DNA of 64,000 nucleotides from Fimbriimonadales bacterium (GTDB taxonomy: Bacteria > Armatimonadota > Fimbriimonadia > Fimbriimonadales > JABRVX01): assembly GCA_045862955.1 (NCBI GenBank), contig BTVI01000003.1, forward strand, positions 32,001 through 96,000. Direction: 5' to 3'. Below, in pieces: positions 7,793-16,464 of this stretch (positions within the stretch are counted from its first letter, which is position 1; each line of letters opens with the position of its first letter). The notes below the pieces were generated by a model, which was given only the letters and a program-made list of their open reading frames with translations, searched no databases and was not told where the DNA came from. The position numbers and the translations under genes were made by a program.

Positions 7793-7862
7793 GGGGCGAT
7801 CGAGGCAAAAACGTGCGGGATTGCACAAGGAATCCTCTTCTACATGTCATAAACAAGGGCGT

Positions 7863-8459
7863 ATGCCGATGCATGTGTTAGCCGACAGCGATCTAGAGAA
7901 GCTGCTGACGGCAATACTGGACCGTTCCTATGGGGTTGCCCTGCGGATGGCGCGAAGCACAGAGGAAGCAGAGCTACTCCTCGGCGAGACCGTTGCCGAA
8001 GCCGTCCGGCGCTACCCGAAAGATGCTCCAGGACCGGCGTTTGGCCTGTGGTTTTATCGCCTTCTCGTAGAGGCGTTCGTGAAGTCGCGCGCCCGCAGGT
8101 TGCGAGAAAGCAAACAACCGGAGGCGGAGGAAGCGACCGAGCTCTTCCTCTATCACGAGACGCAGCGGCTGGGCATGCACTCGCAGTCCAGGGACCCGGC
8201 AGCGGTCTTTTTGGCCAAGCTCCGCCCGGAGCAGATTGCGGCGGCGGTCGAGGCTCTGCCTGATGAGTACCGTGTTCTGTGCGCGCTGTTCCTGTACGAA
8301 GACTTGCGGTACGTAGAGTTGGCTGCCATCCTCGGGGTTGCGCCGAGTGTGGCTCGCAGTCGGCTGCACCGCGGGCGCAACATGCTGCAGCGAACGCTGT
8401 GGCGCGTGGCAATCGAATCCGGGGTGATCCAAGAACCCGCTACGGGGAATCTGGCATGA
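7863..8459 (+). CDS. ECF-type RNA polymerase sigma factor
   Basis: Region 2-like (AEL..ET...A; WFYRLL) and region 4 HTH (LPDEYR...YVELAAILG...ARSRLHRGR); start uncertain (7863/7869). Confidence 0.85.
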   Translation: MPMHVLADSDLEKLLTAILDRSYGVALRMARSTEEAELLLGETVAEAVRRYPKDAPGPAFGLWFYRLLVEAFVKSRARRLRESKQPEAEEATELFLYHETQRLGMHSQSRDPAAVFLAKLRPEQIAAAVEALPDEYRVLCALFLYEDLRYVELAAILGVAPSVARSRLHRGRNMLQRTLWRVAIESGVIQEPATGNLA

Positions 8460-8713
8460 GCGACACCACCTTCTTCACCTGTGAAGAAACGTTTCGCCGC
8501 ATGAAGGACTACGTGGACCGCGAGCTGCCCGCCGCGGAGGTCGCGCTCGTGGAGATGCACCTGAAGGCTTGCGGCGCGTGTGCGAGCGAGTACCGGTTCG
8601 AGCAGACCTTGCTGCGAGAGATGCGTTCCAAGCTTCGATCCGTGCCGACCTCTCCGGAATCCATCGCACGCCTCCTTTCGAACGCCGCTAAGTCCGGCGA
8701 GCAGCCTAAGTAG
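8456..8713 (+). CDS. Zinc-binding anti-sigma factor (zf-HC2, RsrA-like)
   Basis: TCEE...DYVDREL...HLKACGAC (HxxxCxxC); ATGA overlap with the sigma gene. Confidence 0.88.
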   Translation: MSDTTFFTCEETFRRMKDYVDRELPAAEVALVEMHLKACGACASEYRFEQTLLREMRSKLRSVPTSPESIARLLSNAAKSGEQPK

Positions 8714-8800: not shown

Positions 8801-8860
8801 AAAAAAAAAAGTACACAAGTAACTATTGACAAAACCTGGTGGGTAGGGCAGTATATAAGT
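8801..8860 (+). promoter_or_regulatory. Probable sigma70-type promoter with A10 tract upstream
   Basis: A10 at 8801-8810, perfect TTGACA at 8826-8831, AT-rich CAGTATATAAGT 17-22 nt further on; the exact -10 is ambiguous. Confidence 0.55.
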
Positions 8861-8876
8861 GCTGTTGGGCTAGTGC

Positions 8877-10097
8877 GTGGAAACCGAGATGCGAACGCAT
8901 GTGATGAAGCCTTATACGATAGCTGCCGCCGCATACGTCCTGGCGGGCGTAGGGGGTGTCGGAGCGGTGTTACTGCACGTTGGCGAACCTCGGCAGTACT
9001 CGGAACCCGTCTTCTACTATGCTCCCGACTGCCCCGGCTGTGGTGACGTGCTGCCCTCTATAAAGCAGTTGGCAGGCTTGCGTTACGTGGATATCTCGCA
9101 GGCAGACGGATACGAGCGGGCTGTCGCGGCGCAAGGCAGCCCCGAGGTCGAGGTTCCATATCTGCAACTCGTCGTAGCCGGCTCACTCCGTACTGCGGTG
9201 GGCTCGGACGAGGTCTCGGCTCTAGCCCATGCGGTCACTGCTACCGACCGCGAACGAGAGACCTCGTTCAAGGTGGCTGTTGGGCTGCTTGGAATAGTCC
9301 TGCTTGCCGGCGCCGCGTCCTGGGCTTGGCTGGGCGAGCTGGCCCCTCCTGCGGGCGTTCTTCTCTCGCTTCTGGCGGCGATGAGGCCGTGCACGGCATG
9401 CGCGTCGGGGGATCGCCTGCTGAGTGCGGCAGCCTCGGTTCTGGGCGTGGCCGTCTTCCTTTGCATCATGGTGGCAGCCCGAGCGCAGGCGCCGCCGAGA
9501 CACGTGGCGGCCTGGCTGTGCGTAGCCGGAGCCATAGTACAGGCGGGCATGCTGGTAGTAGCTCCGAAATTCTGTGTTCCGTGCCTCGGGGTAGGCCTAT
9601 GCTTCCTGCTCGGCGCCAAGATGCTGCCCAACCTGCCCGTGCCTACCGTGTCGCATCCCCAGAGGTCTCGCGCATGGACAGTCTTCGCCGGGGCGGCACT
9701 AGGGTGCAGCGTTGCACTGCAGGCCGCCTCATCGTCGTACTGGCCCGTTCCCAGCGGAGGTCGCCCCATCGCTGAGTATCGGGGCAAAGAGGCATCGGAG
9801 CTTGTCGGCATGCTCCCCGAGGGAGCGCCCCGGCTCGTGGTGCTGGTGGTGGCGGGGTGCGAGGCATGCCAACGTGCGGTGGGGGCGCTCACGAGGGGCG
9901 GGGTGCCCTTCATTGCAGTGCAGAGATGCAGCGAAGCTGCCGGTCCACCCTGCTTCGCCGATGCAGCGCTAGACACCGCATACCCCACCTTTCTGGTGCT
10001 GGACGAGAGCGGGCGGATCGAGAGGATTTCGGCGGGATGGCCTTCGGGTGCAACCGCCGATGAAGCCGTCGAGTATTACAGGAGGTGTACGCAGTGA
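8877..10097 (+). CDS. Membrane thiol-disulfide oxidoreductase: thioredoxin-like + VKOR-like + thioredoxin-like fusion
   Basis: Four CxxC motifs: FYYAPDCPGC...VP (Trx-like); CTAC in a loop and FCVPC at the start of a TM helix (VKOR-like); VAGCEAC...YPTFLVLDESG (Trx/TlpA-like). Start may be 8889 or 8904. Confidence 0.7.
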   Translation: METEMRTHVMKPYTIAAAAYVLAGVGGVGAVLLHVGEPRQYSEPVFYYAPDCPGCGDVLPSIKQLAGLRYVDISQADGYERAVAAQGSPEVEVPYLQLVVAGSLRTAVGSDEVSALAHAVTATDRERETSFKVAVGLLGIVLLAGAASWAWLGELAPPAGVLLSLLAAMRPCTACASGDRLLSAAASVLGVAVFLCIMVAARAQAPPRHVAAWLCVAGAIVQAGMLVVAPKFCVPCLGVGLCFLLGAKMLPNLPVPTVSHPQRSRAWTVFAGAALGCSVALQAASSSYWPVPSGGRPIAEYRGKEASELVGMLPEGAPRLVVLVVAGCEACQRAVGALTRGGVPFIAVQRCSEAAGPPCFADAALDTAYPTFLVLDESGRIERISAGWPSGATADEAVEYYRRCTQ

Positions 10098-10492
10098 AGC
10101 TCGACACGTTGCTGAGGAAATCCTGGCGCGGCGCCGTTGCCGTGCTTGGCGTGACGATGATTCTGGGGCTGATCCAGATGCCCGGCAGCGGGCAGGTGCC
10201 GCCACCCATAGACCCCGATGACTGCAAGCCGAGCGTTCAATCAGACACGGGGTGCAAGGACTTCCAGTATATGTGCAGCCTACTAGGCTGGAACTGGCAG
10301 ATCATCGTAGAATGCCACAGGTGGTGTTGCTATCGCGATGGATACCTATACGCGACGATCTGGGAAGTACCCTCGGCGTGTGACTGTACGCAGAACCGGA
10401 CCGAGTGCTGTTCGATCTTCTTCCCGAGAAACTGCATGGAGACTGCACAGCACATGCAGAGCACGAAGCCATGCCCGCAGGTTGAGCGCTGA
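10094..10492 (+). CDS. Secreted 12-Cys miniprotein, variant 1
   Basis: AGGAGGTG RBS, GTG start overlapping the upstream TGA, basic+hydrophobic signal peptide, Pro-rich linker, 12 Cys; paralog at 12134. Confidence 0.85.
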   Translation: MKLDTLLRKSWRGAVAVLGVTMILGLIQMPGSGQVPPPIDPDDCKPSVQSDTGCKDFQYMCSLLGWNWQIIVECHRWCCYRDGYLYATIWEVPSACDCTQNRTECCSIFFPRNCMETAQHMQSTKPCPQVER

Positions 10493-10672
10493 GGTTCTAT
10501 GAGGAGTGACCAAGGCCGGGTACCCGGACGTGCTCGTCGCTCTCCGTTCGGGCGGTACTGCTGGGCGATCGTGCAGGGGAAAATGCGCGTGGCCCGCGGT
10601 GTCGGACGCCACTCTCCCCCGCGCGGGGCCGAGAGGTCGTTGTCGGTTATCACGTAGGAGGGGAAATCGGAC

Positions 10673-11083
10673 ATGAGCGGACTGGCGGATGAGATTCGAT
10701 CGTGGCGTCCAATATACCAGTGCGTGGCGCTAGGGGCGGCCGCAGGATTCACGTTCGGCGTCTTCGCCATGGTAGGCTACTACGTCCTCGGGGAATTCAG
10801 AGGTGAGCCGACGCAGACTGTCGCTATCAGCACCCTACTCTGTGCACTTGTCATAGCGCCTTGCGAGTCTCGGTGGGGCAGAGCCGGCTTGATCTGGGCG
10901 AACGCAGCCCTAGCCGTAGTCTGGATCGCGTTCTACTTGGTGGCTGCAGCCTACACCGGCCGCGTGTTCGTCGTCGGAGGTCTACGCGGCACTATCGTGG
11001 TGCTAACCGTGCTGCCCCTGCTAGCGGCGGGCAGTAGTGTGCTGTACGTACGGTTTCGGCATAGTCTGATGGTTGGTCGCTAA
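10673..11083 (+). CDS. Small ~4-TM membrane protein (candidate immunity/partner), variant A
   Basis: AGGAGG RBS; hydrophobic 136 aa; paralogs at 12672 and 13114. Confidence 0.8.
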   Translation: MSGLADEIRSWRPIYQCVALGAAAGFTFGVFAMVGYYVLGEFRGEPTQTVAISTLLCALVIAPCESRWGRAGLIWANAALAVVWIAFYLVAAAYTGRVFVVGGLRGTIVVLTVLPLLAAGSSVLYVRFRHSLMVGR

Positions 11084-11093
11084 GAGGTGTTGT

Positions 11094-11822
11094 ATGCTCA
11101 GGCGTGGTGTGGGACTAACGCTCGTGGAGCTACTCGTGGTCACCGCAGTGATCGCCGCGCTCGCTGCGATTCTGTATCCGGTAGTCACAGTCGCACGGAA
11201 ACGTGGGCAGAGCGCTCAGATCGTGAGTAACATGCGACAGCTCGCACAAGCGGTTAATGTATATATGGATGACTACTGCCTGCGTTTGCCACCCTTAGAT
11301 CCCAGGCCTCTACTGAAGAACCCGGCGGTCAGAGCCATCGCCTACTACCCACACAAGATGGCGACGCGGTCGGAGATGGACAGCGCACCGAGAGAAGAAG
11401 TTCCATTCCTCGGAGACTACGTGTACTGCCGGGAGGTGATCGGGCCGTCCGTTGGCTACGTGGTGTTTGATCACTGGCCAGACTTCTGGCGCGACCCCGA
11501 CGCTGTGTGGAACCACTACTGGACGGGCGTTCCGGCTTCCCCTGTCATCCTGGTATCCCTGCACGACGCGGGCTTTCACATGCTACCCCGCCAGAAGCCG
11601 CTGTGGGCGGTCTTCGACACCAAGTATGATGATCCGCCGCCGCCACCGTGGCTTCGTTTTCCCCCTAGGGTGCTGCGCTGTCGGCTGGACACTTCGGTGC
11701 GCACGTACCGTATCTTGAGGCACATGCAGACGAACATGGTCTTCTCCTATCTGCCGCTCTGTAGGAACAGGTTTGTCTGCTGTAGGACGTGTGAGGAGGC
11801 TGGTCAATACTGTTCGGAATAG
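11094..11822 (+). CDS. Prepilin-type N-terminal cleavage/methylation protein with Cys-rich C-terminus, copy 1
   Basis: RRGVG|LTLVELLVVTAVIAALAAILYPV...SNMRQL; ends CRNRFVCCRTCEEAGQYCSE; GAGGTG RBS before ATG 11094. Confidence 0.85.
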   Translation: MLRRGVGLTLVELLVVTAVIAALAAILYPVVTVARKRGQSAQIVSNMRQLAQAVNVYMDDYCLRLPPLDPRPLLKNPAVRAIAYYPHKMATRSEMDSAPREEVPFLGDYVYCREVIGPSVGYVVFDHWPDFWRDPDAVWNHYWTGVPASPVILVSLHDAGFHMLPRQKPLWAVFDTKYDDPPPPPWLRFPPRVLRCRLDTSVRTYRILRHMQTNMVFSYLPLCRNRFVCCRTCEEAGQYCSE

Positions 11823-11876
11823 CCTCCGACGACGTCGGGGCGAAGCCCCCCTGTCTGCTCGGTAGCGCCAGGCGAC

Positions 11877-12137
11877 TTGGTGCTGGTGATGGCGGGGTGC
11901 GAGGCGTGCGAGCGTGCGGTGGGGGCGCTCACGAGGGGCGGGGTGCCCTTCATTGCAGTGCGGAGATGCAGCGAAGCTGCCGGTCCACCCTGCTTCGCCG
12001 ATGCAGCGCTAGACACGGCATACCCCACCTTTCTGGTGCTGGACGAGAGCGGGCGGATGGAGAGGATTTCGGCGGGATGGCCTTCGGGTGCAACCGCCGA
12101 TGAAGCCGTCGAGTATTACAGGAGGTGTACGCAGTGA
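11877..12137 (+). pseudogene. 5'-truncated copy of the C-terminal thioredoxin domain of 8877-10097 (frame still open)
   Basis: Near-identical to 9838-10097; keeps CEAC and YPT but has no membrane anchor; contains the RBS for miniprotein 2. Confidence 0.75.
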
Positions 12138-12523
12138 AGCTCGACACGTTGCTGAGGAAATCCTGGCGCGGCGCCGTTGCCGTACTTGGCGTGACGATGA
12201 TTCTGGGGCTGATACCGGTGCACACGTTGGGACAGGGAACGCCCCCGCCGCCGATGCAGTGCACGACCACTTCCCATGGGATGTTCGGCTGCAAGGACTA
12301 CCCTGGTTCATGCTCAACCTCAGAGACTAACTGGGACATTATCGTCGCTTGCGATCGCAAGTGCTGTTATGTCGAAGGACAACTCTACTCCGAGACGTGG
12401 ACTCTTTCGTCTAACTGCTGGTGCGTTCAGCTGCAGGGCTGCTGCGATTATAATCGCAATTGCACACAGACGGCGGACATGATCAAGGACAGGTGGCCCT
12501 GCCCGCGATACCAGCAGCAGTAG
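12134..12523 (+). CDS. Secreted 12-Cys miniprotein, variant 2
   Basis: Same leader and 12-Cys framework as 10094-10492, with divergent loops. Confidence 0.85.
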   Translation: MKLDTLLRKSWRGAVAVLGVTMILGLIPVHTLGQGTPPPPMQCTTTSHGMFGCKDYPGSCSTSETNWDIIVACDRKCCYVEGQLYSETWTLSSNCWCVQLQGCCDYNRNCTQTADMIKDRWPCPRYQQQ

Positions 12524-12671
12524 GAGCTTAGCAGCATGAGGCTTGAGAACGGCGGGCACACCGCGAGTGGCTACGCGCAGGGCCTCAGGTCACACCCTCC
12601 CAGGGAGGAATTGGCGCGTGAGGAACCAGCCCCGCTTGTCGTGTTGGCGAACTTCTGAAAGAGGAATCTAA

Positions 12672-13088
12672 GTGGACGTTAGGTATCGCGGCATTTGGGA
12701 CGAGGTGAGGGCATGGCCTGCATGGGTCCGTGTTCCGGCTGTCGGTGCCGCTGCCGGCGCTTCCTTTGGGGTGTTTGCATCGGTGGGGTACTATTTGGTT
12801 GGGCAGTACCGTGGTAGGCCATGGGAGATCGCCATCATCGCTGCTTTGTGGGGCGCTGCAGTTGTCGCTCCTCTGCACAACAGGTACGGCCGCGCAGCAA
12901 TAGCATATGCCACCTTGCTAGCAGCAACCTTGTGGCTGCCGTTCTCTGTGTACACGGGCCAGCTTACCGCGGAGCACATGGCCACCGAGCTCTTCTATAC
13001 TATTCTGTACGTCACGACATTGCCGCTCCTATCCGTCGGCACGTCGACGGTCTATACACTGATGGAGCGGGCAATGCGTGGGCACTAG
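12672..13088 (+). CDS. Small ~4-TM membrane protein, variant B
   Basis: Divergent homolog of 10673 (DEVRAW/DEIRSW; GAAAG..FGVFA.VGYY..G..RG.P; YTG; LPLL); GAGGA RBS. Confidence 0.8.
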   Translation: MDVRYRGIWDEVRAWPAWVRVPAVGAAAGASFGVFASVGYYLVGQYRGRPWEIAIIAALWGAAVVAPLHNRYGRAAIAYATLLAATLWLPFSVYTGQLTAEHMATELFYTILYVTTLPLLSVGTSTVYTLMERAMRGH

Positions 13089-13113
13089 CGGTACATCCGA
13101 CGAGGAGCGCTAA

Positions 13114-13505
13114 TTGGGGACGGGCGGACTAGCGGATGAGATTCGATCGTGGCGTCCAATATACCAGTGCATGGCGCTAGGAACGGCCGCAGGATTCGCC
13201 TTCGGCGTCTTCGCCACGGCAGGCTACTACGTACTCGGGCAATTCAGAGGTGAGCCGATGCAGACTGTCGCTATCAGCACCCTACTCTGTGCACTTGTCG
13301 TAGGGCCTTGCGAGTTTCGGTGGGGCACAGCCGGCTTGATCTGGGCGAACGCAGCCCTAGCCCTAGTCTGGATCGGGTTCTACTTGGTGGCTGCAGCGGA
13401 GGTCCACTCGGCACTATCGTGCTGCTAACCGCGCTGCCCCTGCTAGCGGCGGGCAGTAGCGTGCTGTACGTTCTGTTTCGGCATCGTCCGATGGTCGGTC
13501 GCTAG
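13114..13505 (+). pseudogene. Frameshifted copy of membrane protein variant A
   Basis: 25-bp deletion at 13397/13398 relative to 10951-10975 splits the ORF into 13114-13428 and an out-of-frame C-terminus ending at 13505. Confidence 0.85.
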
Positions 13506-13515
13506 GAGGTGTCGT

Positions 13516-14250
13516 ATGCTTAGGCGTGTCGTCGCACTGACGCTGATAGAGCTACTCGTGGTCATTGCAGTGATCGCCGCGCTCGCTGCGATTCTGTACC
13601 CTGTCATCTCGGGAGCGCGGAAACGTGGGCAGAACGCTCAGATCGTGAGTAACATGCGGCAGCTCGCACAAGCGGTCAATGTCTACATGGAGGACAACCA
13701 CCTGCGTCTTCCGCCCTTCGACCCTAGGCCGCTGCTGAAGAACCCGGCGGTCAGAGCCATCGCCTACTACCCGCACAAGATGGCAACGCGGTCGGAGATG
13801 GACAGTGCACCCAGAGAAGAGGTTCCATTCCTCGGAGACTATGTGTACTGCCGGCAGGTGGTCGGAGTCTCTGCAAACTACTTCGTGGTTGAGCGCTGGC
13901 CCGACGTCATTTGGCGCGACCCCGACGCCGTGTGGCGCAACTACTGGACAGACATTTCGGCGTCACCTGTCATCCTGGTATCCCTGCACGACGCGGGCTT
14001 TCAGATGCTGCCCCGCCAGCAGCCGCTCGGGGACTCCGTCCCGGACACTGAACACGACAAGCCGGTCAGACCACCGCCGGTGAACTTCCCGCCGAGGGTC
14101 CTTAGGTGTAGGCTGGACACTTCGGTGCGGACGTATCGAATCGTGGAGCACATGCAAACGAACATGGGATTCTCGTATATCCCGTTGTGTATGAACAAGT
14201 ATGCCTGCTGCAAGCACTGCCAAGAGGCGGGCCAGGACTGCTCCGAATAG
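13516..14250 (+). CDS. Prepilin-type protein with Cys-rich C-terminus, copy 2
   Basis: [24 protein letters not shown]; ends CMNKYACCKHCQEAGQDCSE; AGGAGGTG RBS. Confidence 0.85.
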   Translation: MLRRVVALTLIELLVVIAVIAALAAILYPVISGARKRGQNAQIVSNMRQLAQAVNVYMEDNHLRLPPFDPRPLLKNPAVRAIAYYPHKMATRSEMDSAPREEVPFLGDYVYCRQVVGVSANYFVVERWPDVIWRDPDAVWRNYWTDISASPVILVSLHDAGFQMLPRQQPLGDSVPDTEHDKPVRPPPVNFPPRVLRCRLDTSVRTYRIVEHMQTNMGFSYIPLCMNKYACCKHCQEAGQDCSE

Positions 14251-14262
14251 CGGTAGACGACA

Positions 14263-16464
14263 TCAGGGCGACGGTGCGGTTGCCTGCTCGGTAGAACCCG
14301 GCGACTTGTAGGAAGGCAGCGGGATGCGCCATGCGCCGCGCCCGTGCGTGGCAGCCGTCAGGTAGCCGGTGCGCCGGTTGAGCGATAGGCTCTCGACCGG
14401 AGTGTGCGGGATGCCCTTGCCGAAGCGCTTCCACTGCCCTCCCCCGGTGTTCGACACGAACACGCCGCAATCCAGCGCCACGTAGATGTCGTCCGGTCGG
14501 GTAGGGTCAATGGCGATGTGACGCACGGGAGCATCCGGAAGGTTGTCATCTACCGAGCGCCAGGAACCACCCGCGTTTTCCGTGAGGAACACGTGCTTGT
14601 TACCGAACCCGGCCAGCCCGACGATCACCCTACGCGGCGAGCGAGGGTCTACGGCGACCCAAGTGATCCACTGCGCGGGCAGTCCCGCCGAGATGTCGTA
14701 CCACTGTTCACCCGTGTTAGGAGTGACCCACATCCGCCCCCACCGGTTGCCGCAGTAGATCACCTCGGACTTGCCATAGGCGATACCAATCGCGGATATG
14801 GGGCCGATGTCACCGCTGATAACCTTCCACGTGTCGCCCCCATCGGTGGTGCGCGACGCGCGGAGGGCCCCCGCAACCAGGATGTCCGGGTCGTTCGGGT
14901 CCATGGCATAGGGTGCATAGAACAGCGCGCCCGTGCGGTCGATCCTATCGGCGATGGACTGCCAGCTCTCGCCCCCGTCGTCCGACTGATACATGGCAAG
15001 CCCTACGTAGGTGGAATAGGCCCGCTTGGGGTTCTTATAGTTGAAGAGACTGATGCCACCGTCTCCCTGCACCGATATCCGCCACACGGGGTTGCCGCGG
15101 TACTTGAGTGTGCCGTTATCCTGTGTGCCACCAATGGCATCGTATGGGTCCCACGGGTGCGTGTCTATGGTTTCGAATTGGATGTTGGCCAGGCCGGTGT
15201 TGATGGCACGCCAGGTGTCGCCTCGGTCATAGGTGACGAACATGCCGCCATCGGTGGCGCCATAGAGCACCTTCGGGTCGTGTGGGTCGAAGGCGTACCC
15301 GTGCCAGTCGGGATGAACGCCCCACTGGAAGGACCGTGCTGCGTCGATCCAAGTCTCGCCGCCATCCAAGCTGCGGAAGCAGCTGGAGCCCGCCGCATAC
15401 ACCACCTTCGGATCGTCCGGCCCGCATGCGAGGAAGTTATCGTACCAGCTGCCGTAGTTCGGTGCGTTGGGGAGGTGCACCCACGTTCGGCCGCCATCGT
15501 CTGTTCGGTACATGACGATGCCCGCATCGGTGACATAGGAGACGTACACGGTGTTGGGCACGTCGCGGCACTGGGCGAGTTGAGTGCGACCGAAGGTGCC
15601 TGGCGCGCGCAGTCCTCCCTCGAGCATCTCCCACGTGTTCCCCGAGTCATTCGTCTTGAATACACCTTCTTTGGGTGGGGTCCCACCACAGGCGTAGAAG
15701 GTATCCGGCTGCTTGGGGCTGTTGACGACGTCGCGGAAGTAGCCCTCGAGCAGTCGCGTCCAGGTGTTGCCTCCATCGAGAGAGCGAAAGAGACCGCGCG
15801 ATGTGGCGGCCAGCAGCAACCCCGGGATCTTGGGGCTCGCGGTCAGCTTGGCCCAATACGCGCCCGCGAACTGCTCTTCGGCCAGCAGCTCCCATGTGCG
15901 GCCCGCATCCATTGAGCGCAAGAGCCCCGCACCGAAGTAGCTGTCTCCGGAGCCGTGCGCCTCACCAGTGCCCGCGTAGATGATGTCCGGGTTGAATGGG
16001 TCGAGAATGAGCGAGCCGAAAGAGAGAGACGCCTCGAAGTCCGAGAGCGGCTCCCAACTCGCACCCCGGTTGGTGCTCTTGAACACTCCGCCGTGCGATG
16101 CGCCGATGTAGATGCGGTTGGTGTTGCGCGGGTCCACCGCGATGCTACTGACACGCCCCGCACACTCGTACCCGCCCCATCCATCGCGGAGTTTGCTGGG
16201 ACCGATGAACTCCCACGCGGGCACGTTGCCCTTGGCATCCGTCCAGTAAGGCAACTGGAGAGCGGCCAGCCAGGCCGAACGCCGCGCCTGCCACGCGGGC
16301 GCCTGGGGCGAGACGCGGAGCTGGTCGAAGTACTCCTCACGCTGCTCGAGTAGCTTGGCATACTGAGAGACGAGCTGTACGGGCGGGCGGTCTTGCGCGT
16401 CCTTCGGTGGGCCTATTTGTACGAGAAAGGCGGCGAGCACGACCAGCGATGCAACGAACCCCAT
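14263..16464 (-). CDS. Secreted BNR/Asp-box beta-propeller protein (GH74/VPS10-like)
   Basis: Signal peptide; many S/T-x-D-x-G-x-T-W boxes (RSMDAGRTW, RSLDGGNTW, RTDDGGRTW), GGTQDNG, ATHGRG. Confidence 0.85.
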   Translation of the reverse strand: MGFVASLVVLAAFLVQIGPPKDAQDRPPVQLVSQYAKLLEQREEYFDQLRVSPQAPAWQARRSAWLAALQLPYWTDAKGNVPAWEFIGPSKLRDGWGGYECAGRVSSIAVDPRNTNRIYIGASHGGVFKSTNRGASWEPLSDFEASLSFGSLILDPFNPDIIYAGTGEAHGSGDSYFGAGLLRSMDAGRTWELLAEEQFAGAYWAKLTASPKIPGLLLAATSRGLFRSLDGGNTWTRLLEGYFRDVVNSPKQPDTFYACGGTPPKEGVFKTNDSGNTWEMLEGGLRAPGTFGRTQLAQCRDVPNTVYVSYVTDAGIVMYRTDDGGRTWVHLPNAPNYGSWYDNFLACGPDDPKVVYAAGSSCFRSLDGGETWIDAARSFQWGVHPDWHGYAFDPHDPKVLYGATDGGMFVTYDRGDTWRAINTGLANIQFETIDTHPWDPYDAIGGTQDNGTLKYRGNPVWRISVQGDGGISLFNYKNPKRAYSTYVGLAMYQSDDGGESWQSIADRIDRTGALFYAPYAMDPNDPDILVAGALRASRTTDGGDTWKVISGDIGPISAIGIAYGKSEVIYCGNRWGRMWVTPNTGEQWYDISAGLPAQWITWVAVDPRSPRRVIVGLAGFGNKHVFLTENAGGSWRSVDDNLPDAPVRHIAIDPTRPDDIYVALDCGVFVSNTGGGQWKRFGKGIPHTPVESLSLNRRTGYLTAATHGRGAWRIPLPSYKSPGSTEQATAPSP

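Follow-up and report, generated by a model that had tools for sequence, protein, structure and literature searches.

Which kind of system is encoded by the co-oriented genes at positions 8801-14308 of the 64,000-nucleotide stretch analysed here (the window; contig BTVI01000003.1 of a Fimbriimonadales bacterium, phylum Armatimonadota)? They code for a predicted membrane thiol-disulfide oxidoreductase (hereafter the enzyme), a cysteine-rich miniprotein with a predicted signal peptide, a small membrane protein and a prepilin-like protein, followed by a second, partial set. A preliminary description of this DNA had proposed a new system of disulfide-rich exported effectors with their own folding enzyme and cognate membrane partners. 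Our results showed that the four genes are a real, conserved module of Armatimonadota. The system is apparently undescribed, and the membrane gene swapped together with the miniprotein gene, the count over the whole phylum, the exchange of alleles, the loss of cysteines in pairs and the miniprotein model all appear to be new. No description of the module was found in the literature searched, most subscription papers and supplements lying outside it, and newness rests on composition, i.e. no described system with these parts was found. Below, G000 designates the genome of the window and G001 a congener; coordinates are window positions unless a contig or locus is named.

Conservation of the module in Armatimonadota

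Profiles of the enzyme (3 sequences) and of the miniprotein (28 sequences) were searched in 401 genomes of the phylum. They were built from most of the loci counted, which are thus self-matches by construction; neighbours were first chosen by position, hydropathy and Cys content, and related genomes in the counts are not independent. The enzyme profile matched 17 of the 401 genomes, one of which was dropped (G119, where the match was rejected as a plain glutaredoxin). The miniprotein profile matched 20 and G001 added one, giving 21 genomes from six families. A prepilin-like gene adjoined the miniprotein gene in all 21 of them. A membrane gene with three to four helices stood beside it in 18, two other loci stopping at a contig edge and none being detected in G329. 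An enzyme gene, whole or broken, was present in 19, while G257 displayed a weak remnant and G280 none. All four genes occurred in 16 of the 21 genomes, in five gene orders; this count includes G343, where the locus is divided between two contigs, the break falling within the miniprotein gene.

Some loci had at first been retrieved by the miniprotein only (G257, G280, G329, G435, G173:C37 and G000:C6); these displayed the same neighbours, in whole or in part. As a control, 77 other prepilin-like loci, taken from a GTDB-wide scan with generic pilin N-terminal patterns, gave no match to the enzyme, miniprotein, membrane or pilin-head profiles. The objection foreseen in the preliminary description, that the four genes might not occur together in other genomes, therefore fails, since a neighbourhood survey found them together across six families.

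A search of 1.84 billion proteins with the two window miniproteins as sole query yielded 6 matches, one of which, a protein of 4900 residues, was dropped. This protein (P0002) displayed 15 stretches matching a profile of the two sequences (E 1.7e-9) and is probably a Cys-rich repeat protein. Word-index protein searches found 1, 10 and 6 proteins, two metagenome scans 0 and 1 locus, and a plasmid search gave no match.

Some loci carried further small genes. In genus g121, a fifth gene of about 190 codons, whose product has an N-terminal anchor, followed the pilin gene in three loci (L049 1140-1712, L050 4667-5236 and L051 5418-5990). Small anchored proteins were likewise encoded after the module in G007 (L010 9885-10304) and G329 (L058 336-815), the latter between two pilin genes, at the position expected for the membrane gene.

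Miniproteins

The window encodes two miniproteins with a predicted signal peptide and 12 Cys each, as previously described. All their Cys could be aligned, and 12 in 99 residues, against a background of 1.2%, corresponds to P = 3e-9. This number is not a constant of the family, since homologues carried 8, 10 or 12 Cys (7 in one case). The Cys count was even in 32 of 33 mature miniproteins and in all 20 representatives sharing less than 40% identity (P 1e-6 if these are independent), and the pairs 44/79, 74/98 and 96/114 were either jointly present or jointly lost. Because the cysteines are even in number and lost in pairs, the alignment points to full disulfide bonding, in keeping with the up to six bonds initially suggested. 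The proteins share a hydrophobic N-terminus and a mature part of about 80-110 residues; a lipobox was found in none of the 33.

The model of miniprotein 1 (pLDDT 86, exceeding 90 for most mature residues) displayed four long strands and one helix. No match above cut-off was found for the miniproteins in Pfam, NCBIfam, PADLOC or the PDB sequences, and no usable feature match for miniprotein 1 in the ESM Atlas. Fold searches with the model gave best Foldseek E-values of 0.9 in the PDB and 0.13 in a viral library, and a best VIA Z of 3.6, none of 48,161 chains reaching 5. The modelled miniprotein thus appears to be without clear fold match, which does not in itself prove its fold to be novel. Nor did a known non-effector family emerge, an outcome that the preliminary description had named as unfavourable: the miniproteins matched no family or solved structure.

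The cis-defensins (CS-alpha-beta) were considered as relatives. They are small, secreted, Cys-rich, disulfide-stabilised and usually cationic proteins in which a CxxxC helix is tied to a CxC strand, according to the part of PMC11561630 available, which does not mention Armatimonadota. Compared with the cis-defensins of that account, the window miniproteins are larger and acidic, with CC doublets and a predicted long beta sheet. The pattern CxxxC...CxC occurred in 3 of 33 miniproteins, the CxxxC of the window proteins sits in a predicted strand, and the net charge of the mature part was 0 or below in 31 of 33, none being at +3 or more. Because of this acidic to neutral charge and the rarity of the pattern, a cis-defensin identity was rejected and the miniproteins are not regarded as defensin-like cationic peptides.

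Oxidoreductase

The enzyme is composed of a signal anchor, a thioredoxin-like domain (residues 39-128), a helical membrane core and a C-terminal thioredoxin/glutaredoxin domain. It carries four CxxC motifs: C52/C55, C172/C175, C233/C236 (within P-x-x-CxxC) and C328/C331. The last three, together with P230 and P370, were invariant in 18 of 18 homologues; the N-terminal pair C52/C55 was found in 1 of 18. The preliminary description had recognised a Trx-VKOR-Trx arrangement, of which the two thioredoxin folds and the four core Cys were recovered. In the structure model (pLDDT 78), thioredoxin-like domains occupy both ends, with a Z of 8-10 to the thioredoxin/glutaredoxin fold (VIA). The N-terminal domain adopts this predicted fold despite the near absence of its CxxC, and the C-terminal one displayed the CxxC, a proline (P370) at the cis-Pro position and weak glutaredoxin sequence matches.

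The VKOR part of the earlier assignment fared less well. None of the 18 homologues matched PF07884, and a profile-profile comparison (hhalign) with VKORs of the order gave a weak match (E 8e-5, probability 61%, 83 columns) that places the FCxxC of the enzyme on the VKOR active site. Foldseek ranked 3KP9 44th (E 0.079, root-mean-square deviation 12.8), both VIA fold lists for the whole-enzyme model were filled by the thioredoxin domain, with VKOR outside the top 50 of either, and in the ESM Atlas the core reached best scores of 0.80-0.84 with a VKOR cluster third, which is a lead only. As to MauE (PF07291), there was no Pfam match, and hhalign gave a probability of 0.3% against a shallow alignment of 4 sequences.

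VKOR-thioredoxin fusions, as described in the available part of PMC4555120, share four core Cys (a loop pair and a membrane CxxC at a helix start), an extra helix and a C-terminal thioredoxin; a conserved loop Ser/Thr is presented there as a further VKOR feature. As far as that account goes, the core of the window enzyme follows the plan of these fusions (e.g. Synechococcus VKOR, 3KP9), its four Cys being C172, C175, C233 and C236. Yet its loop is short, with a CxxC pair where VKORs of the order display C-x(6-14)-C, and the enzyme alignment contains no invariant or near-invariant Ser/Thr between C175 and the next helix. It further differs by its additional N-terminal anchor and thioredoxin-like domain, and by being tied to one operon. 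Judging from these alignments, the enzyme probably works like a VKOR-thioredoxin fusion, yet should not be filed as a VKOR member.

The only PF07884 match of the window genome is a canonical VKOR at another gene (C16:37404-37781), and no DsbB was found in this genome. The locus enzyme is therefore likely to be a dedicated one, additional to the housekeeping VKOR, which agrees with the folding enzyme of its own that had been suggested for the system. Canonical VKOR occurred in 57 of 61 genomes of the order (a tally that takes in G036, an unpublished genome), whereas the locus enzyme is patchy.

Membrane and prepilin-like proteins

Hydropathy indicated about four segments in membrane protein 1, as initially described, but only two above threshold in membrane protein 2, which aligns with it end to end at 39-42% identity. 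Among the 22 members, no common Pfam family and no invariant residue were observed; nor did the membrane protein give any match above cut-off in Pfam, NCBIfam, PADLOC or the PDB sequences.

Both window prepilins, designated as such from the outset, exceeded the TIGR02532 cut-off (17.4 and 17.5 bits vs 16.3). The N-terminal methylation motif was found in 22 of 23 module pilins, with Glu (+5) invariant in all 23; the cleavage sites read G-L and A-L, not G-F. This motif is common to the H-X9-DG prepilins (TIGR04294) and the module pilins, but 20 of the 23, both window copies among them, lack the C-terminal H-X9-DG motif, have no TIGR04294 match and form a separate branch. The three that match TIGR04294 all come from genus g88. 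Most of the non-TIGR04294 module pilins share the motif P[LM]IGS[YF]xY, which reads PFLGDYVY in prepilin-like protein 1. DUF1559 is presumably a suitable label for the module pilins. The Cys tail mentioned in the preliminary description does occur in the window genus but is limited to its 3 rows among the 23 aligned; many module pilins carry Cys pairs.

Pilus machinery is encoded in trans in G000 (3 secretins, at least 5 full-length assembly-type ATPases and 1 prepilin peptidase), together with 57 prepilin-like genes. For Fimbriimonas ginsengisoli, 79 PulG-like genes are reported in the available part of PMC4072686.

Polymorphism, exchange and spare genes

The second, diverged cassette of the preliminary description was retrieved for the miniprotein, membrane and pilin genes, but it holds just the last 86 codons of the enzyme gene, and two membrane genes. 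Its left arm (11878-12221) is 96.8% identical in DNA to 9838-10181, a similarity extending through the signal peptide, past which the sequence switches to a mature part of 41% identity with all 12 Cys kept (52% over the whole miniprotein, 12/12 Cys aligned). The membrane proteins of the two cassettes are likewise 41% identical. Their pilins share 78% of residues, i.e. 89% over the first 110 and 70% over the remainder.

Comparison of G000 with G001 revealed contrasting synonymous divergence (dS). The enzyme reached 1.14 and three flanking genes lay at 0.52-0.72, against 0.11 for miniprotein 2, 0.009 for membrane protein 2 and 0.33 for pilin 2. The homologues of miniprotein 2 and membrane protein 2 are 95% and 99% identical, respectively, and DNA identity reaches 95% over 11881-13214, with 81-87% around. 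Because the dS of the miniprotein and membrane genes lies far below that of the flanks and below that of the pilin, these two genes were apparently transferred jointly from one species to another, and later than the pilin. In three sequencing runs from three studies (X5, X10 and X4), contigs over miniprotein 1 showed no difference in 529 bases; for the upstream flank, at similar depth, differences numbered 55 in about 930 (X5, X10) or 21 in 649 (X4). This contrast is a hint only, no contig spanning both.

On a metagenome contig (L207), a third allele of the miniprotein is accompanied by a third type of membrane protein and by a pilin sharing 87% identity with pilin 2. In G001, the spare behind membrane protein 2 is of this L207 type with a 5' end like that of membrane protein 1, and an intact, different membrane gene takes the place of the broken spare of the window (13114-13505). 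Spares, i.e. membrane and/or pilin genes lacking a miniprotein of their own, were recorded in G000, G001, G146 (two loci), G169, G173 and G329. Enzyme genes were split or reduced in G001, G330, G354, G383, G435, G257 and G000:C6, and miniprotein genes broken in G007 and G173:C37; the membrane, pilin and enzyme genes of G007 are open. The genetic hallmarks of polymorphic toxins were thus found, i.e. a constant N-terminus, a variable mature part, a linked variable small gene and orphan copies. The cognate pairing proposed earlier is borne out as a pattern, in that miniprotein and membrane genes travel together and spare membrane genes accumulate.

Related cassettes elsewhere in the window genome

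A scan of the neighbours of the 57 prepilin-like genes of G000 flagged 7: one window pilin (the second lay outside the distance rule of the scan), genes on contigs C6, C7, C20, C2 and C5, and a doubtful one on C17. The C6 locus (C6:76947-79252, i.e. L121 12948-15253, minus strand) is a third cassette of the same family, with a decayed enzyme gene, an intact 12-Cys miniprotein, a short pilin and a membrane gene; its enzyme retains the N-terminal CxxC and C-terminal remnants, the membrane core being missing. At C7 (58660-60427) and C20 (63267-64899), a gene for a membrane-anchored CxxC protein lies upstream, accompanied by a prepilin-like gene and by one for an exported, Cys-rich miniprotein from a different family. 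On C2 (114343-114999) and C5 (L209 2252-2998 and 4187-4819), three minus-strand genes encode fusion proteins in which a membrane core bearing CxC and CxxC motifs is joined to a C-terminal domain containing about 10 Cys; a prepilin-like gene follows each of the three. These cores match that of the locus enzyme weakly (E 2e-4), the fusions match neither canonical VKOR nor the window miniprotein family, and they are possible enzyme-substrate fusions. Redox partner, exported Cys-rich protein and pilin hence form a recurrent trio, to which only the window family adds the membrane protein.

Possible role of the module

We tentatively favour, at somewhat below even chance, a pilin-assisted polymorphic antagonist with a cognate membrane immunity protein. 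The miniprotein would cross the inner membrane by means of its signal peptide, and the linked enzyme, to judge by its six invariant Cys and its topology, would oxidise the 8-12 cysteines of the miniprotein. Electrons would flow from the C-terminal thioredoxin CxxC to the loop CxxC, the membrane CxxC and finally quinone, as in VKOR-thioredoxin fusions. By analogy with TcpF and TcpB, the folded miniprotein might then bind the head of its pilin-like partner and exit, with the machinery of pili or of type II secretion, through a secretin encoded elsewhere, to harm cells without the matching membrane protein. New pairs of miniprotein and membrane genes would enter by recombination, with the enzyme 3' end and signal peptide as left arm and the membrane or pilin gene as right arm, older membrane genes being left as spares; exchange and spares are seen in the sequence, their use being presumed. 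Harm to neighbours and protection by the membrane protein are proposed because such genetic behaviour (exchange, spares) is typical of toxin-immunity loci.

This proposal has parallels in known systems. Several disulfide-bonded bacteriocins have their own oxidoreductase and membrane immunity protein (sublancin/BdbB, pediocin/PedC, microcin V/Cvi). Like these and like polymorphic toxins (contact-dependent inhibition, type VI secretion), the module combines a constant 5' part with a swapped mature part, a small variable downstream gene, spares, interspecies exchange and a dedicated folding enzyme. Unlike them, it has no known toxin or immunity domain, no carrier and no dedicated ABC exporter, its product is acidic and its pilin-like gene obligatory. 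In TcpB-TcpF (toxin-coregulated pilus of Vibrio) and CofB-CofJ (CFA/III of enterotoxigenic Escherichia coli), a Sec-exported protein that must cross the outer membrane is encoded beside a pilin-type protein (available part of PMC10120004). The window miniprotein, also predicted to be exported and encoded beside a pilin-like gene, resembles these cargoes as that account presents them. It differs by being a disulfide-rich protein of 90-110 residues whose operon lacks pilus machinery and includes an enzyme and a membrane protein, and no sequence or fold link to TcpF/CofJ-type cargo was found. The bolder formulation of a new weapon class, i.e. disulfide-stapled polymorphic miniproteins of new fold with a private VKOR-like enzyme, dedicated pilin adaptors for their export or for delivery on contact by type IV filaments, and cognate four-helix immunity cassettes that spread between species, is doubtful.

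Several observations weigh against antagonism. An acidic or neutral charge in 31 of 33 miniproteins is unlike that of membrane-attacking cationic peptides, and no known toxin is resembled in family or fold searches. The pilin is a more constant neighbour than the membrane protein (21/21 vs 18/21), the latter having no detected gene beside the miniprotein in G329. Spare pilins with diverged heads (50-65% in G146) fit a receptor or adhesin role equally well, and the different, classical H-X9-DG pilin of genus g88 strains a strictly cognate adaptor role. In a Mantel test on 16 loci, covariation of the miniprotein was no weaker with the pilin head (r 0.36) than with the membrane protein (r 0.26); the test did not separate the two pairings, both correlations being accounted for by linkage alone. 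In addition, some of the genes seen as broken may reflect errors of assembly. Finally, an antidote is not part of the wider theme, because the neighbour scan flagged no four-helix membrane gene beside the C2, C5, C7 and C20 pilins.

Some of these points would suit a variable pilus-tip or pseudopilus module, in which the miniprotein, stapled by disulfides, remains attached to the pilin as an adhesin or binding subunit, the membrane protein acts as a chaperone or loading factor, and variation is driven by surfaces, phages or predators instead of killing. Such a module is a serious though on balance unlikely alternative, to which the invariable presence of the pilin, the acidic miniproteins, the tandem diversification of pilin heads and at least 4 further G000 prepilins (C2, C5, C7, C20), each adjoining an exported protein or domain rich in Cys, with a CxxC redox partner alongside or fused and no membrane gene flagged, lend weight. 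It leaves unexplained the divergence of the membrane protein, as rapid as that of the miniprotein, its retention as spares, and its movement with the miniprotein between species while the pilin lagged (dS 0.009 and 0.11 vs 0.33).

Kin recognition or peptide signalling appears improbable. The miniprotein would then be a strain-specific ligand, stable and acidic, with pilin head and membrane protein as receptor and spare pairs reading the ligands of other strains; this accords with the covariation of all three proteins and with the membrane and pilin genes duplicated as pairs without miniprotein at the two G146 loci. Against it, no recurrent kinase, cyclase or regulator was found among the loci mapped, the upstream sigma/anti-sigma pair is common only to G001 among the loci inspected, and the membrane protein has neither invariant residue nor cytoplasmic domain. 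Weakest is a role in envelope housekeeping or metal and redox balance, where the Cys would bind metal or buffer periplasmic redox with the enzyme acting as reductase, or the enzyme would serve mainly the pilin: it can draw on a direction of electron flow that is so far a prediction, the weak VKOR match and the Cys pairs of many module pilins, but is quite unlikely given that, in an exported protein, Cys of even number that disappear in pairs are in keeping with disulfides rather than with metal sites, and that patchy distribution (20/401), fast divergence and lateral swapping do not fit housekeeping.

Whatever its function, one branch of the Armatimonadota prepilin repertoire is now tied to a defined candidate cargo, a folding enzyme and a co-swapped membrane partner. 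If antagonism is its function, a pilin-coupled, disulfide-dependent route would be added to the known ways in which bacteria attack neighbours. It would also give a job to part of the large unexplained prepilin-like repertoire of the phylum, because other Cys-rich families adjoin other prepilins in the same genome. Should the function be that of a plain bacteriocin with immunity, the system would become a variation on a known kind. The question can be addressed in a laboratory host, as only four small genes are involved. With its four to six predicted disulfides, the miniprotein is a natural scaffold, whose model is confident and has no clear counterpart among known structures. As for the enzyme, it would represent a VKOR-like architecture that is new and serves a single substrate; a related core is fused to a Cys-rich domain in three other G000 genes.

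Organization of the locus

Features of the window locus are listed in gene order in Table 1. The co-orientation of the genes (8877-14250) and the GTGA coupling of enzyme and miniprotein 1 (overlap at 10094) agree with the preliminary description. Gaps of 180 and 148 bases follow miniprotein genes 1 and 2, respectively. As for the single AT-rich promoter assumed at first, its A-tract and TTGACA are present and both retained in G001, but a consensus promoter scan of the window returned 0 sites at its thresholds. Contigs of an RNA run (X15) cover parts of the enzyme, miniprotein 2 and broken membrane genes at a depth of 2.5-10, which, with no silent control, is not proof of transcription.

Table 1. 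Coordinates of the module and its components in the window
Feature	Position	Strand	Remarks
Co-oriented run	8801-14308	+	between extracytoplasmic function (ECF) sigma/anti-sigma pair and convergent BNR-repeat gene
Promoter-like stretch	8801..8860	+	candidate, from sequence; A-tract 8801-8810, TTGACA 8826-8831, weak -10
Predicted membrane thiol-disulfide oxidoreductase, 406 aa	8877..10097	+	start at 8877 or a few codons further on
Miniprotein 1, 132 aa	10094..10492	+	predicted signal peptide, 12 Cys, net charge -4; GTGA overlap with enzyme gene
Membrane protein 1, 136 aa	10673..11083	+	about 4 hydrophobic segments (hydropathy); likely partner of miniprotein 1
Prepilin-like protein 1, 242 aa	11094..11822	+	TIGR02532 above cut-off; genus-specific Cys tail
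Duplicated oxidoreductase 3' end, 86 codons	11878..12137	+	DNA identity; left homology arm of cassette 2
Miniprotein 2, 129 aa	12134..12523	+	12 Cys; first 27 residues as in miniprotein 1
Membrane protein 2, 138 aa	12672..13088	+	homology to membrane protein 1; likely partner of miniprotein 2
Spare membrane protein 1 copy	13114..13505	+	broken by 25-base deletion and frameshift; TTG start behind GAGGAG
Prepilin-like protein 2, 244 aa	13516..14250	+	TIGR02532 above cut-off

Directly upstream (7821-8713) are encoded an ECF sigma factor and a zinc-finger anti-sigma factor, SigH/RsrA-like by weak matches. A regulator of redox-sensing type thus adjoins a disulfide operon, an arrangement found elsewhere, among the loci mapped, only in G001, where the anti-sigma gene and the promoter-like stretch are separated, relative to the window, by an insertion of about 800 bases (L008 14760-15580). 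Downstream, a BNR/sortilin-like beta-propeller protein of 733 amino acids, also present in G001, is encoded on the minus strand (14263-16464) and converges on the module. For lack of recurrence at the other mapped loci, neither the ECF pair nor the trp genes nor the BNR protein was accepted as part of the module.

The DNA 3' of both pilin genes (14251-14308 and 11823-11877) is alike up to the start of the enzyme fragment. A joint leading from 14256 back to 11871 was present in three sequencing runs, which suggests arrays of other order or with more units.

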